A stretch of DNA of 64,000 nucleotides from Gammaproteobacteria bacterium (GTDB lineage Bacteria; Pseudomonadota; Gammaproteobacteria; Ga0077536). A model generated the notes under the pieces. That model was given only the letters and a program-made list of their open reading frames with translations, had not been told where the DNA came from and did no database searches. Location of the stretch: positions 1,016 through 65,015 of the forward strand of contig JBFWUN010000022.1 of NCBI GenBank assembly GCA_050247235.1, written 5' to 3'. The position numbers and the translations under genes were made by a program. Of the stretch, positions 1 through 18,132 are shown in pieces. Numbering within the stretch: position 1 is the first letter of the stretch; the number at the start of each line of letters is the position of its first letter.

Positions 1-665
1 ATGTCCCAGATGGGGGGCGTGACGGAATCGTCCACGCAGGCTGCGGTCGACTGGCCGACCTCGCCGAACGTCGCGCCGGTGGACAGCGCGTGGCGCAGCA
101 CGCCGGACTGCGGCAGTCCGTCGTCGACCTTCAAATCGAGTTCGCGCATCACGTTGACCGGGATGCCGCGGCCGAGCACGAGGTTCAGCCGGTCGGTCGG
201 CGTGGCTTCCGTGTCGTAGTAATCGTTGGAGCGGAACAGCACGAGGAACCCGTTGAAGGCGTTGCGCGGTGCGAGATCGGTGTCCGTTGCGGTGGGCGCA
301 GCGTCCCCGCCGACGAACGCGCCCTGGATGAAACCTGCGCGGGACAGCTGTTCCCACAGCGCGAGCGCTTCCGTCCAGTCGGTGGTGTGCCGATCGAGTC
401 GTCCGTTGCCATTGCCGCCCGTCGTGACCCCGGGAATCGCCTGCGCCGCGTTGGCGGCCGGCCAGTCCCCCGGCACCTGCCGGAAGCGATCGACGAAGCC
501 GTAGTACGCGGCCTGCACGCCGGAGTTCTGGTCCGCGATGTTGCGGACCCGCGCGCTCGTGATGAGTTCCTGGCCTTTCAGGATGCCGCCGAGCAGCAGG
601 CCGATGATGACGAGCACAATTGCAATTTCGACCAGGGTGAAACCTTGCTGACGGCGAGTGGACAT
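1..665 (-). CDS. Type IV pilin-like protein with a prepilin N-terminal cleavage/methylation motif; the 3' end runs off the window
   Basis: Absent from the ORF track because no stop codon lies in the window. The reverse complement of 601-665 reads ATG TCC ACT CGC CGT CAG CAA GGT TTC ACC CTG GTC GAA ATT..., giving MSTRRQQG|FTLVEIAIVLVIIGLLLGGILKGQELITSARVRNIADQNSGVQAAYYGFVDRFRQVPGDW. That is a short basic leader, a Gly, then an F-T-L-x-E hydrophobic helix. The frame stays open down to position 2 (more than 221 codons) with G/C-rich third positions. Confidence 0.85.
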   Translation of the reverse strand, partial: MSTRRQQGFTLVEIAIVLVIIGLLLGGILKGQELITSARVRNIADQNSGVQAAYYGFVDRFRQVPGDWPAANAAQAIPGVTTGGNGNGRLDRHTTDWTEALALWEQLSRAGFIQGAFVGGDAAPTATDTDLAPRNAFNGFLVLFRSNDYYDTEATPTDRLNLVLGRGIPVNVMRELDLKVDDGLPQSGVLRHALSTGATFGEVGQSTAACVDDSVTPPIWD

Positions 666-705
666 GCGCGGATCCGGGAATGTGAAAGGAGTCACTGAAG
701 GCGTG

Positions 706-721
706 TGCAGGATCCGCGCCA
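706..721 (-). promoter_or_regulatory. Candidate sigma54 (-24/-12) promoter for the pilin gene
   Basis: The minus strand reads TGGCGCGGATCCTGCA against the consensus TGGCACG-N4-TTGCW. The GG and GC dinucleotides have the correct spacing, and 10 of the 12 specified consensus positions match. It lies 40 nt upstream of the pilin ATG at 665. An 8-nt inverted repeat sits upstream, TTTTCCCG at 749-756 and CGGGAAAA at 796-803, and could be an enhancer site. A sigma54 enhancer-binding protein is encoded in the same locus (16696-18132). Confidence 0.55.
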
Positions 722-817
722 AGGGCCGGCGCGCTGATCCGGCGAGGGTTTTCCCGGCGAGCACGGCTCGGACTGTCGTCGATCGGTCACTCTGTCGGGA
801 AAATGACAACGCCTCGC

Positions 818-15537: not shown

Positions 15538-16676
15538 CGGGTCTGCGCGCCGGGCTCGCGCGATGGCGTGCCCGCGGGGGCGCCGATGATGCGATCCAGC
15601 CGATCGATCGCGTGCAGCAGCGACGGCAGGTCGGGCGCCGTCTCGTGCGCCGGCGGGGGCGCCTCGTGCGCTGCCAGCGCCCAGCCCGTCTCGGCGAGAT
15701 CGGCGAGATCGGCGTAGCGCGCGGCTGGCGCCGGGGCATCCGCCGCGAGCGGGGTGCGGGCGAGCGCCTCGCGCGTGATTTCCGGCGCCAGCAGCGCGGC
15801 GACGGCGAGCACGCCGATCACACCGGCGGAGGCCCACCACAATCGCCGCCAGGAGAACGCGCGTGCAGTCGTGAACTCGCTGTCCCGCGCGGCGCGCGCG
15901 ATGTGTCGCGGCGTCACGCGCGGTGCGCCGCTCGAGTACGCCGCGAGCAGCGCCTTGTCGGACAGCACGTTGATCCGCCGGAGCAGACCGCGCGAATGCC
16001 GCGCGAGCGCGCGGATCGCGCCGCGGGTGAACAGTTCCGGACCCCGGTACCCGCTCGCGTGCAGCCGCGTGTTGAGGTAGTCACGGATCTCACCCGCGCC
16101 GAACGGCGGCAGCTGGAAGCGGTACGTGATCCGCTCGTTGAGCTGCCGGATCTCGTGCCGGGCGAGCTTCGCGTCGAGTTCCGGCTGCCCGAACAGCACG
16201 ATCTGCAGCAGCTTGTCATGTGCCGTCTCCAGGTTGCTCAGCAGCCGGATCTCCTCCAACGTCGCGAGCGGCACGCACTGGGCTTCCTCGACGAACATCA
16301 CCACGCGACGGTCGTCGGCGTGCTTCGCGAGCAGGTAGTCGTGGAGCTGGTGCAGCAGCATCGGCTTGGTCGCCCCGTCCGGCACCACGAGCTTCAGCTC
16401 GCCGGCGATCGCCGGCAGGATTTCATCCGGACCGAGGTTCGGGTTGGCGAGGTAGATCACCTCGCAGTTCGCGGGCAGCTCGCGCTCGAGCATCCGGCAC
16501 AGCATGGTCTTGCCGCTGCCCACTTCGCCGACCACCTTGACGATGCCTTCGCCGCGCGACACCGCGTAGAGCAGTGCATCGAGCACGGCGCCGCGATTGC
16601 CGCCGGGGAAGAACAGGTCCGGGTCGGGCGTGATCCGGAACGGGGACTTGGAGAATCCGAAATGATGGCAGTACAT
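15534..16676 (-). CDS. mshM: ExeA/GspA-family AAA ATPase, MshM-like
   Basis: MYCHHFGFSKSPFRITPDPDLFFPGGNRGAVLDALLYAVSRGEGIVKVVGEVGSGKTMLCRML carries the Walker A motif. VVMFVEEAQ is Walker B-like. There is a C-terminal TM segment. The RBS GGGAAGGA lies upstream. Confidence 0.85.
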   Translation of the reverse strand: MYCHHFGFSKSPFRITPDPDLFFPGGNRGAVLDALLYAVSRGEGIVKVVGEVGSGKTMLCRMLERELPANCEVIYLANPNLGPDEILPAIAGELKLVVPDGATKPMLLHQLHDYLLAKHADDRRVVMFVEEAQCVPLATLEEIRLLSNLETAHDKLLQIVLFGQPELDAKLARHEIRQLNERITYRFQLPPFGAGEIRDYLNTRLHASGYRGPELFTRGAIRALARHSRGLLRRINVLSDKALLAAYSSGAPRVTPRHIARAARDSEFTTARAFSWRRLWWASAGVIGVLAVAALLAPEITREALARTPLAADAPAPAARYADLADLAETGWALAAHEAPPPAHETAPDLPSLLHAIDRLDRIIGAPAGTPSREPGAQTR

Positions 16677-16695
16677 CGGGCGATCCTTCCCTCGA

Positions 16696-18132
16696 TCAGG
16701 GGTCGGCCGGCGGGTTCATGCCGAGCCGCGCGAGTTTGCTGTAGAGCGTGGTGCGGTTGACGCCGAGCAGCCGCGCCGCGCGGCTGAGATTGCCGCCGGC
16801 CTGTGCCAGCGCGGCACCGATCAGGCGGCGTTCGAATGCGGCCACTGCGTCGTCGAGCCGGAAGCCCGGTGTGCGCAGCCGCGCGACCAGGGACGCCTCC
16901 CCGTCCGCCGTATCCGCGCGCGCGGGCACCGGCAGCGGCAGGCTGGGTTCGAGTTCGGGCTGCAGGTCGGCCGCGTCCACGCGGCGCCGGCCGAACTTGG
17001 TGCCGAGCCGGACCACGATGTTGCGCAGCTCGCGCACGTTGCCGGGGAACGCGTAACCCGCGAGCAGCGCGTCCGCTGCCTCGGTCAGTTCGAACGGTTC
17101 GATGGTGCCGCGGTAGAGCGCGATGAAGTGCGCGCACAGCCGCCGCCAGTCGTCGCCGCGCGCACGCAGCGGCGGCACCCCGACGGTCAGCACGCTCAGG
17201 CGGTGGAACAGGTCGGCGCGGAACGCGCCGGCGCGCGTCGCCTCGCGCAGGTCGCGATTGGTGGCCGCGATCACCCGCGCACCCGAGCGCCGCGGCTGCG
17301 TGTCCCCGAGACGGTAGTACTCGCCGTCCTCGAGCACGCGGAGCAGCTTGGCCTGGAGCTCGAGCGGCATCTCGCCGACCTCGTCCAGGAACAGGGTGCC
17401 GTCACCCACTTCCTCCAGGAGCCCCGCGCGGGTCCGGTCCGCGCCGGTGTACGCGCCGCGCACGGCGCCGAACAGGTGCGCCTCCAGCAGTTCCGGGCTG
17501 AACGCGGCGCAGTTCAGCGAACGCAGCGCACGCCCTGCCCGGTGCCCCTCGCGGTGCAGGCAGGCGGCCACGAGCTCCTTGCCGACGCCGGATTCGCCTT
17601 CGATCAGCACCGGGAACGGCGAGTTGGCGAACTGCGCGATCAGCGCCCGCAGCGCCTGCATGCCGGCGCTGTCGCCGATCAGCGTGTCCTCGGCGTGAGG
17701 GCCGGGCGCGTGGCGCGCGATCTCCACTTCCTGGATCGCGAGCTGGTGGTGCAGGCGGGCGCGCAGCAGCTCCGCGTCGCACGGCTTCGGCAGGAAATCG
17801 ACCGCGCCGAGCGTCAGCGCGTGCTGCACATTGCGGCGATCGCTCTGTCCGGACAGCACCAGGATGCGCATCGTGCGGCCGCGCGCGAGCAGTTCCACGA
17901 TCAGCGCGTAGCCTTCCTCGGGCGCGTGCGGCGTGGGCGGCAGGCCGAGATCGATCAGCGCGAGCGACGGCGCGCGGGGCAGGGCGTCGAGCAGCCGGTG
18001 CGCCTCGCCGCGGCTGCCCGCGGCGTGGACGTCGAACTCGTCGGCGAGCGTGAACCTGAGCGCGTCGACGATCAGCGGATCGTCGTCGACGAGCATCACG
18101 GCGGCCCGGGGCGGGTCAGTCCTCGCGGACAT
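16696..18132 (-). CDS. Sigma54-dependent response regulator of the NtrC family with a PrsR-like receiver
   Basis: The receiver reads VMLVDDDPLIV...LALIDLGLPPTPHAPEEG...DFLPKP. The AAA+ domain has GESGVGKE, the GAFTGA variant GAYTGA, and VRELRN. A C-terminal Fis-type HTH reads GNLSRAARLLGVNRTTLYSKLARLGM. An alternative start at 18096 (MLVDDD) would remove the 17-nt overlap with metF. Confidence 0.9.
   Translation of the reverse strand: MSARTDPPRAAVMLVDDDPLIVDALRFTLADEFDVHAAGSRGEAHRLLDALPRAPSLALIDLGLPPTPHAPEEGYALIVELLARGRTMRILVLSGQSDRRNVQHALTLGAVDFLPKPCDAELLRARLHHQLAIQEVEIARHAPGPHAEDTLIGDSAGMQALRALIAQFANSPFPVLIEGESGVGKELVAACLHREGHRAGRALRSLNCAAFSPELLEAHLFGAVRGAYTGADRTRAGLLEEVGDGTLFLDEVGEMPLELQAKLLRVLEDGEYYRLGDTQPRRSGARVIAATNRDLREATRAGAFRADLFHRLSVLTVGVPPLRARGDDWRRLCAHFIALYRGTIEPFELTEAADALLAGYAFPGNVRELRNIVVRLGTKFGRRRVDAADLQPELEPSLPLPVPARADTADGEASLVARLRTPGFRLDDAVAAFERRLIGAALAQAGGNLSRAARLLGVNRTTLYSKLARLGMNPPADP

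Follow-up and report, generated by a model that had tools for sequence, protein, structure and literature searches.

An MSH-like type IV filament locus with its own sigma-54 regulators and ABC transporter in uncultured Gammaproteobacteria

A 64,000-nucleotide (nt) stretch of a gammaproteobacterial genome (GenBank assembly GCA_050247235.1, contig JBFWUN010000022.1; hereafter the window) carries at its left end an intact set of genes for a surface filament, a relative of the MSHA pilus of Vibrio. In the reading that we favor, and consider reasonably likely, this locus specifies an entire machine for an MSH-like type IV filament, equipped with its own controls of expression and assembly. As the initial annotation of this DNA had proposed, its assembly genes make up a full MSH-flavored set, with a secretin that matches MshL best, an extension ATPase bearing the MshEN domain, which binds cyclic di-GMP (c-di-GMP), and an ExeA/MshM-like ATPase and a tetratricopeptide repeat (TPR) protein flanking the secretin. 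A histidine kinase, a sigma-54 response regulator, a predicted sigma-54 promoter in front of the pilin gene, and an ABC transporter are part of the same locus. Its parts and their regulatory logic are already known, but the arrangement is undescribed: literature searches covering MshI/J/K homology, msh genes with sigma-54, and the classification of type IV filaments returned no description of it, and public annotation offers no system-level name.

Because the window has a G+C content of 71%, open reading frames alone are uninformative, and coding frames were fixed from third-position GC, frame plots, and translations. All sixteen features listed by the initial annotation were found in this way, in the order and orientation claimed (Table 1). 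Its account of the gene content holds; its placement of the start of the locus at position 1 does not, since the pilin gene is cut by the window edge. A second assembly with an exact protein match to the window (GCA_050182445.1, contig JBFXCG010000008.1; L001 in our numbering of loci) covers the ground past this edge. There, the full pilin gene (10888-11595; 235 amino acids (aa), with a short leader and the cleavage motif G/FTLVE) is followed by an ABC ATPase gene and then by a gene whose product combines a PAS domain with a degenerate GGDEF domain. As these two genes lie beyond the truncated pilin, the locus extends past position 1.

On the other side of the locus, the eleven genes from the regulator to the minor pilin are spaced by only -20 to +36 nt, which indicates a single assembly operon. 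This operon may be read through from metF, whose stop codon is overlapped by the regulator gene over 17 nt and which is preceded by a sigma-70-like promoter. On the minus strand a single long gap is left, of 152 nt and in front of the pilin gene, and it contains the sigma-54 element. A generic terminator scan of the window stayed at chance level, and an Rfam scan of the window returned no RNA element, hence no c-di-GMP riboswitch.

Table 1. Features of the filament locus, by position in the window.
Feature	Position	Strand	Details
Putative major pilin, N-terminal 221 codons in the window	1-665	-	ATG at 665; N_methyl 32.6 bits
Candidate sigma-54 -24/-12 element, TGGCGCGGATCCTGCA	706-721	-	3' end 41 nt upstream of the pilin ATG
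244-aa protein	818-1552	-	4-nt overlap with the permease stop
ABC-2 permease, 257 aa	1549-2322	-	Some 6 hydrophobic segments; 51-nt gap to the divergent kinase gene
Sensor histidine kinase, 559 aa	2374-4053	+	HATPase_c 39.8 bits; H-box THDIKN (H363)
Minor pilin, 265 aa	4061-4858	-	G/FTLLE; N_methyl 31.3 bits; last gene of the assembly operon
622-aa pilin-like protein	4863-6731	-	QRG and hydrophobic N terminus, no Glu5; alpha-1 helix at residues 14-68
157-aa secreted protein, PilP/MshK position	6715-7188	-	Kept in related loci with enough flank
207-aa bitopic membrane protein, PilO/MshJ/GspM position	7188-7811	-	Transmembrane segment 10-28 by hydropathy
526-aa alignment-complex protein	7792-9372	-	AlphaFold2: PilM-like actin fold ~8-290, transmembrane segment ~302-330, periplasmic alpha/beta domain
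Inner-membrane platform (GspF/PilC/MshG family), 401 aa	9394-10599	-	T2SSF 154.6 bits
MshE-type extension ATPase, 568 aa	10602-12308	-	T2SSE 410.6 bits; MshEN 49.2 bits
TPR protein, 500 aa, membrane-anchored, MshN/TadD-like position	12313-13815	-	TPR_16, TPR_2, TPR_19 (C-terminal repeats); transmembrane segment 128-146
Secretin, 561 aa	13852-15537	-	Lipoprotein signal LLTGC (from translation); Secretin 120.6 bits
ExeA/MshM-like AAA ATPase, 380 aa	15534-16676	-	AAA_22 94.6 bits; C-terminal membrane anchor, transmembrane segment 279-297
Sigma-54 response regulator	16696-18132	-	Response_reg, Sigma54_activat 202.2 bits, HTH_8; first gene of the assembly operon

Assembly machinery and its classification

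The secretin passes the Pfam cut-offs of the Secretin and Secretin_N_2 models, with STN at 26.7 bits falling slightly short of its cut-off of 28.4. Among models of named systems it matches MshL (TIGR02519) best, narrowly missing the cut-off with 240.8 bits against 250.2, followed at a distance by GspD (147.2 bits, cut-off 351.35) and PilQ (111.9 bits, cut-off 284.35). The neighboring AAA ATPase finds its top NCBIfam match in the ExeA-related model TIGR03015 (190.7 bits, under the cut-off of 324.5). In the extension ATPase, the c-di-GMP–binding motif of the N-terminal MshEN domain (RIGELLVQKGVVSQDQVRIALTEQ) is legible as RxGxxLLxxGxxxxxxLxxALxxQ within the first 35 residues, and the corresponding model NF053729 is matched above its cut-off (58.4 bits against 38). 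The same protein stays under the cut-offs of both GspE (520.3 bits, 630.25) and PilB (502.9 bits, 675.65), and its closest solved structures are those of PilB, PilF, and GspE. Similarly, the platform protein reaches 303.2 bits on the GspF model, under a cut-off of 424, and the minor pilin has GspG as its best model, at 36.6 bits over residues 8-119 and again under the cut-off.

The MSH class has been defined by mandatory genes (mshA, mshE, mshG, mshL, mshM), encoded at a single locus without a prepilin peptidase (PMC6668835). Here, an MshEN-bearing ATPase is encoded at a single locus in which no Peptidase_A24 gene is present between the regulator and PAS genes, either in the window and L001 or in five other complete loci. 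The ExeA-like ATPase (mshM), the platform (mshG), and the pilin (mshA) all lie within the same 19 kb, each matching its counterpart at the level of domains only. As every core score is below its equivalog cut-off, MSH is the best fit for the locus and not a demonstrated clade membership.

The locus was also compared with the MSHA locus of Vibrio cholerae (mshH-Q), of the MSH class of Denise et al. (2019). Both have a lipoprotein secretin of MshL type with an ExeA-like ATPase (MshM) and a TPR protein (MshN) on its two sides, an extension ATPase with a c-di-GMP–binding MshEN domain, a GspF-type platform, and a fused PilM-PilN alignment protein (MshI, by the description in the initial annotation), and both are single loci with neither a prepilin peptidase nor a dedicated retraction ATPase. 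The gene order, however, is indeed unlike that of Vibrio, as had been claimed, running M-L-N-E-G-I-J-K instead of I-J-K-L-M-N-E-G. In further contrast to V. cholerae, MshF is missing, the series MshB/A/C/D/O/P/Q is replaced by two pilins and the 622-aa pilin-like protein, the proteins at the I, J, and K positions and the 622-aa protein match no profile, the core scores lie under the equivalog cut-offs, and the locus has a kinase, a sigma-54 regulator, and an ABC transporter of its own.

Profile scores also speak against the two canonical systems that could have displaced this assignment. A canonical type II secretion system (T2SS) was rejected on the GspD, GspE, and GspF scores given above and on the lack of any match at the level of GspC, GspH, GspI, GspJ, or GspK. 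A type IVa pilus was rejected on the PilB and PilQ scores, on the lack of a PilM, PilN, PilO, or PilP profile match in 100 orthologues, and on the lack of PilT inside the locus.

The major pilin itself is unusual in its conservation. Its first ~70 residues are nearly invariant across 23 loci, in which the C-terminal cysteines C210 and C229 are also conserved. Taken over 19 complete loci, it matches the window copy at a median identity of 73%, compared with 53% for the minor pilin and 49% for the kinase, making it the second most conserved protein of the locus. Such a ranking is shared by GspG-type pseudopilins, and raises the alternative of a secretion-type, T2SS-like pseudopilus that exports one or more substrates with the conserved pilin as its piston subunit. 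The fused, GspL-like architecture of the alignment protein, the ExeA-like ATPase, which is also present in the T2SS of Aeromonas, and the GspG match of the minor pilin would all sit well with a pseudopilus. We nevertheless consider it unlikely, given that the secretin scores far better on MshL than on GspD, that the pilin has a C-terminal cysteine pair typical of true pilins, that the ATPase retains an intact c-di-GMP–binding MshEN motif, and that the locus contains neither a PDZ-bearing GspC, nor a GspH/I/J/K set, nor a conserved candidate substrate gene. The cysteine pair, the MshL-like secretin, and the absent GspC/H/I/J/K components lead us to favor a true pilus over a pseudopilus.

Proteins without a family match

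Five proteins of the locus, of 526, 207, 157, 622, and 244 aa, have no Pfam or NCBIfam match in their window copies, and a Pfam scan of 100 of their orthologues, taken one by one, gave none at E <= 0.01. In public annotation they are hypothetical proteins. The largest body of evidence concerns the 526-aa protein, which the initial annotation had labeled a PilM-PilN fusion, a description that is borne out at the level of the fold. An AlphaFold2 model built from 38 homologues (mean predicted local distance difference test score, pLDDT, 83.5) was compared with known structures by Foldseek. It returned Pseudomonas aeruginosa PilM (5eou) at E 1.1e-11 and the PilM structures of Thermus (2ych) and Myxococcus (3jc8), with FtsA and the cytoplasmic domain of GspL (1yf5 and 4pht, E about 1e-6) as further neighbors. 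Sequence identity is 10-13%, so that the evidence is one of fold. On this model, the protein is predicted to consist of a PilM-like cytoplasmic domain, a transmembrane segment, and a periplasmic domain, in an architecture of MshI/GspL type. Its family is large yet missed by annotation: searching a library of 1.84 billion proteins with the family profile yields, at a clustering level of 50% identity, 2,746 clusters, of which 1,189 reach E <= 1e-30.

The 207- and 157-aa proteins had been called PilO-like and PilP-like. Their sizes, positions, and topologies agree with these labels, but sequence and profile support for them is absent, and profiles built from orthologue alignments of the 526-, 207-, and 157-aa proteins retrieved nothing useful from PDB sequences. 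From their placement we infer that they may be the counterparts of PilO/MshJ and PilP/MshK, respectively. Between the profile of the 207-aa protein and that of the PilN-like region in the 526-aa protein no significant similarity was seen, and an argument from PilN/PilO paralogy is therefore unusable.

For the 622-aa protein, previously described as PilX-like, the label holds for the N-terminal helix but not for the globular fold. AlphaFold2 models the protein with good scores (pLDDT 88.8; predicted TM-score, pTM, 0.86) as a pilin-type helix followed by a large globular part, and Foldseek found no neighbor for this globular part in the PDB (best E 0.02, TM-score <0.1). The QRG preceding the helix is conserved, and Glu5 is missing as in tip subunits of PilX/GspK type. 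Orthologues range in length from about 530 to 1130 aa.

Pilin promoter, sensor kinase, and ABC transporter

Expression of the pilin appears to be under the control of sigma-54. Matches to a sigma-54 pattern are not enriched in the window (16 against 22 expected), and TGGCGCGGATCCTGCA counts as evidence not on account of such a match but because of its conservation across genomes. Of 65 orthologous loci, 57 have the pattern TGGYNY-N5-NTGC in the 150 nt upstream of the pilin gene, compared with 0.49 expected from shuffled sequences. In the subset of loci with measured distances, the conserved element starts at a median of about 58 nt before the inferred start codon. As the flanks vary from AT-rich to GC-rich, this amounts to a strong phylogenetic footprint of a sigma-54 promoter, and there is a strong case from sequence conservation that the promoter would drive both the pilin gene and the ABC ATPase gene behind it. 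In many AT-rich orthologous promoters (for example, those of L061, L073, and L079), an IHF-like motif, WATCAR-N4-TTR, lies a few bases upstream of the -24 element. Under the strict pattern it is present in 16 of 76 upstream regions, and the window copy, which is GC-rich, shows no more than a degenerate form, GGATCAGCGCGCC. In two other loci (L092 19313-20626 and L093 19168-20031), a gene for an adenylate/guanylate cyclase is found on the opposite strand between the 244-aa gene and the pilin gene, inserted at the point that forms the sigma-54 promoter region elsewhere.

That the locus has its own kinase and sigma-54 regulator, as first proposed, is confirmed by the gene calls and domain matches. 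The regulator carries a phospho-acceptor aspartate (D62) in its receiver domain, the GAYTGA motif at position 226, and a Fis-type helix-turn-helix, and it heads the operon in all six complete loci. The kinase gene converges on the minor pilin gene with a gap of 7 nt. Its product had been described as having seven to eight transmembrane segments ahead of the H-box. The H-box stands, and hydropathy of residues 14-222 resolves the membrane part into six strong segments (64-222) with two weak ones ahead of them. A linker of ~120 aa without a domain match connects this part to the dimerization and catalytic (DHp/CA) core, and no PAS domain was detected. Among solved kinases, ZraS is the best match, and only residues ~342-560 are matched.

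In the initial annotation, this pair was likened to PrsK and PrsR, the regulators of PEP-CTERM/exosortase exopolysaccharide systems, wired to a pilus. Several features invite such a comparison: PrsK (TIGR02916) is the top NCBIfam match of the kinase (52.6 bits, E 2.8e-14), and both have a multi-transmembrane kinase with a similar H-box, of HD(I/L)KN type, paired with a sigma-54 activator; PrsR (TIGR02915) is the second-best model of the regulator; and an ExeA-related ATPase and a TPR protein are found in those loci as well, with the corresponding proteins here weakly matching PEP-CTERM–locus models. The kinase score is, however, far from the PrsK cut-off of 300, and the alignment joins residues 341-545 to positions 462-668 of a 679-position model, confining the match to the catalytic core and leaving the multi-transmembrane/GAF sensor part unaligned. 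The regulator scores higher on NtrC (324.5 bits) than on PrsR (307.9 bits, cut-off 502.6), remaining under the cut-off of either model. Among the called genes of six complete loci (the present one and five related ones) and the scanned genes of the window, none for an exosortase or a PEP-CTERM protein was seen. Because of these sub-cut-off scores and the missing exosortase/PEP-CTERM context, the pair is not a PrsK/PrsR system. We regard even a PrsK/PrsR-type pair recruited to a pilus as very improbable, and the sequence comparison leaves a distant affinity to the PrsK family for the kinase core only.

The wiring of the locus resembles instead that of PilS and PilR. PilS has six transmembrane segments and senses PilA in the membrane, and PilR activates pilA with sigma-54 (PMC6058289). 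In common with this pair, known from P. aeruginosa and others, the locus combines a kinase that has six strong membrane segments but lacks a large periplasmic domain with an activator of the NtrC family (a bacterial enhancer-binding protein) and a -24/-12 promoter immediately upstream of the major pilin gene. In contrast to PilS/PilR, the two genes are not adjacent, and the kinase core is nearest to cores of PrsK and ZraS type. No PilS or PilR model is among the NCBIfam matches listed (for the regulator, the best 25 of 67). Co-location suggests that kinase and regulator are partners.

Between the kinase and the pilin lie the genes for the permease and the 244-aa protein, the second of which always accompanies the first in related loci. 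The window copy of the permease matches ABC2_membrane_2/3 weakly, and ABC2_membrane models match 12 of 16 orthologues, with best E values of 2.7e-9 to 4.6e-8. The partner ATPase gene, of the DrrA/GldA/NodI subfamily, begins seven bases downstream of the pilin gene in L001. Profile searches match the 244-aa protein weakly (E about 0.002) to consensus TPR proteins, so that it is probably a TPR-like helical repeat. An ABC ATPase, an ABC-2–type permease, and a third protein without a family beside a sigma-54–controlled pilin gene recall PilG-PilH-PilI of Myxococcus xanthus, an ABC transporter that is needed for pili and for which a role in pilin handling has been proposed (PMC3724824, PMC6060248). 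The likeness is one of layout; here the pilin gene stands between the permease/accessory pair and the ATPase, and the host system is MSH-like and not a type IVa pilus.

These features suggest how the machine may work. The filament would be assembled by the secretin and its helpers (the ExeA-like ATPase and the TPR protein), together with the extension ATPase, platform, PilM-PilN-type protein, and pilin-like pair. Pilin supply would be controlled as by PilS/PilR, the kinase phosphorylating the regulator of the locus, which would then activate the pilin promoter with sigma-54. The six-helix domain of the kinase may read the status of the pilin or of the ABC transporter in the inner membrane. Extension would be gated by binding of c-di-GMP to MshEN, as in Vibrio MshE; the MshE of V. 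cholerae binds c-di-GMP (PMC4624765). If the analogy with Myxococcus PilGHI holds, pilin handling may be aided by the ABC-2 transporter together with its TPR-like partner. Prepilin processing would fall to a peptidase encoded elsewhere, and retraction, if any, to a PilT paralogue likewise encoded elsewhere, such as one of the three PilT/PilU proteins at 58-61.5 kb in the window.

The PAS-GGDEF genes found behind the ABC ATPase gene in many loci agree with this picture; several points weigh against it. Every core component lies under the equivalog cut-off of every named system. The two clear pilins and one pilin-like protein are fewer than the usual set of GspH/I/J/K type, and the degree of conservation of the pilin is unusual for a surface pilin and suits a pseudopilus or another constrained role equally well. 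The genes for kinase and regulator lie on opposite strands at a distance of 12.6 kb, with co-location as the one indication of their partnership. The PAS protein of the present genome is without a GGDEF motif. Finally, the system is known from genomes alone, and the carriers seen, the best 80 of 425, are all uncultured.

A different division of the locus would make the kinase, ABC-2 transporter, TPR-like protein, and pilin a transporter-coupled unit of their own for membrane sensing or pilin handling, with a secondary link to the assembly operon. In six loci (L008, L010, L013, L040, L046, and L074) this module holds together and the available flank beyond the kinase shows no assembly gene; conversely, the assembly core recurs in unchanged order in relatives at greater distance, but without a kinase/ABC module alongside (L090). 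Precedents exist in Bce-type ABC-coupled kinases, which appear as weak matches when the kinase core is compared with the PDB, and in PilGHI (PMC3724824). However, in most loci whose flank is long enough (52 of 62 and 43 of 53 under strict criteria), the module adjoins the assembly operon, the sole plausible partner regulator of the kinase heads that operon, and any contact between kinase and transporter would be hypothetical. We therefore think a separate unit quite improbable. A bolder variant, which we hold to be rather unlikely, would join the kinase, the ABC-2 transporter, the TPR-like protein, and the hyper-conserved pilin into a self-contained device of the inner membrane that senses or handles pilin through the transporter, as if a PilS-like autoregulatory loop had merged with a Bce- or PilGHI-like transporter, and that feeds a filament whose subunit is constrained by a role other than adhesion, for example, secretion or another conserved interaction. 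If this were true, the alignment and tip proteins would represent families that have so far stayed outside all profile libraries.

Two groups of genes elsewhere in the window touch on the favored MSH-like machine. At 19551-22919 on the plus strand, ~0.6 kb beyond metF and on the strand opposite to it, lies a gene for a 1122-aa PAS-GGDEF-EAL protein, followed by those for transketolase, GAPDH, and PGK; this protein could feed c-di-GMP to the MshEN domain of the locus ATPase. Some 40 kb from the locus (58009-61483, plus strand), three tandem genes encode PilT/PilU-family ATPases of 376, 420, and 379 aa (504.6, 451.3, and 417.6 bits, cut-off 319.1), beside yggS (57170-57982) and proC (56315-57169). 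Three in tandem exceeds the usual pilT-pilU pair, and the G+C content of this stretch is 0.62-0.65, lower than the usual ~0.71. They are candidate retraction motors, either for the filament of the locus or for another pilus.

Conservation across genomes and genomic surroundings

At least 507 full-length homologues of the kinase were retrieved, and a scan of one genome per species found a kinase relative in 425 genomes, the best 80 of which formed the locus survey. All 80 belong to uncultured Gammaproteobacteria, as metagenome-assembled or single-cell genomes, and no cultured carrier was identified among them. When the window proteins were searched against the 80 loci by tblastn, a single arrangement was found nearly wherever the flank permits, down to 35% kinase identity. 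On one strand, the TPR protein, MshE, GspF, the 526-, 207-, 157-, and 622-aa proteins, and the minor pilin follow one another, with the kinase on the other strand; beyond the kinase come the permease, the 244-aa protein, the pilin, the ABC ATPase, and often a PAS-GGDEF gene. Five more complete loci, reached through homologues of the 526-aa protein, each open with the sigma-54 regulator and the AAA_22 ATPase. The metF-transketolase neighborhood is kept in two of these five, and a third has transketolase directly upstream; this shared flanking context points to vertical inheritance of the locus. Given the synteny across related and distant loci, the M-L-N-E-G-I-J-K order is a stable trait of a broad clade and not a local rearrangement. 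The initial annotation had raised the prospect of a commonly annotated locus type; with 425 genomes it is common, but it is not annotated, its signature proteins being listed only as hypothetical proteins.

In the more distant locus L090 (1-17137), found through an 846-aa homologue of the 622-aa protein, the assembly core is directly followed by canonical pilB-pilC-pilD. Insertion sequences interrupt the secretin gene or genes next to it in three of the five further complete loci. In three related long-read assemblies (L088 3759-4918, L092 2671-3918, and L093 8032-9383) such elements, of rve or Transposase_mut type, lie within the secretin gene or replace the TPR/MshE/GspF region, which suggests that the system is decaying in some lineages; the window copy is intact.

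Detection and classification of type IV filaments lean on profiles from a few cultured models. In the present case, five machine proteins are invisible to Pfam and NCBIfam, even though the signature family comprises more than 2,700 clusters at 50% identity and hundreds of uncultured Gammaproteobacteria, in samples from soil, sediment, groundwater, and the sea, carry this type of locus. One conserved locus here links assembly of MSH type, sigma-54 control in the style of PilS/PilR, gating by c-di-GMP, and a PilGHI-like ABC transporter, and the poorly understood role of pilus-associated ABC transporters thereby becomes testable. For structural work, two targets present themselves: the major pilin, with its unusual conservation, and the 622-aa pilin-like protein, whose fold is unmatched.

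The surroundings of the locus contain further genes of note. In L001, past the left edge of the window (13577-17036 and 18628-20735), a toluene/phenol multicomponent monooxygenase cluster (Phenol_Hydrox, TmoB, Rieske, and MmoB) lies just beyond the PAS gene, and after it come OsmC and Crp-family genes and two genes for phage-type integrases. Within the window, a 1382-aa multi-PAS histidine kinase is encoded at 31462-35610 (minus strand), and a second ABC system at 41418-44408 (minus strand) is made up of an ABC_transp_aux/DUF4350 protein of 530 aa and an ABC ATPase of 312 aa, a pairing reminiscent of GldG/GldA transporters of gliding-motility type. An 828-aa frame at 48427-50913 (plus strand) has four phosphoglucomutase/phosphomannomutase domains confined to residues 376-815; its first ~375 residues are without a match and may reflect either a mis-extended start in a GC-rich frame or an N-terminal fusion.

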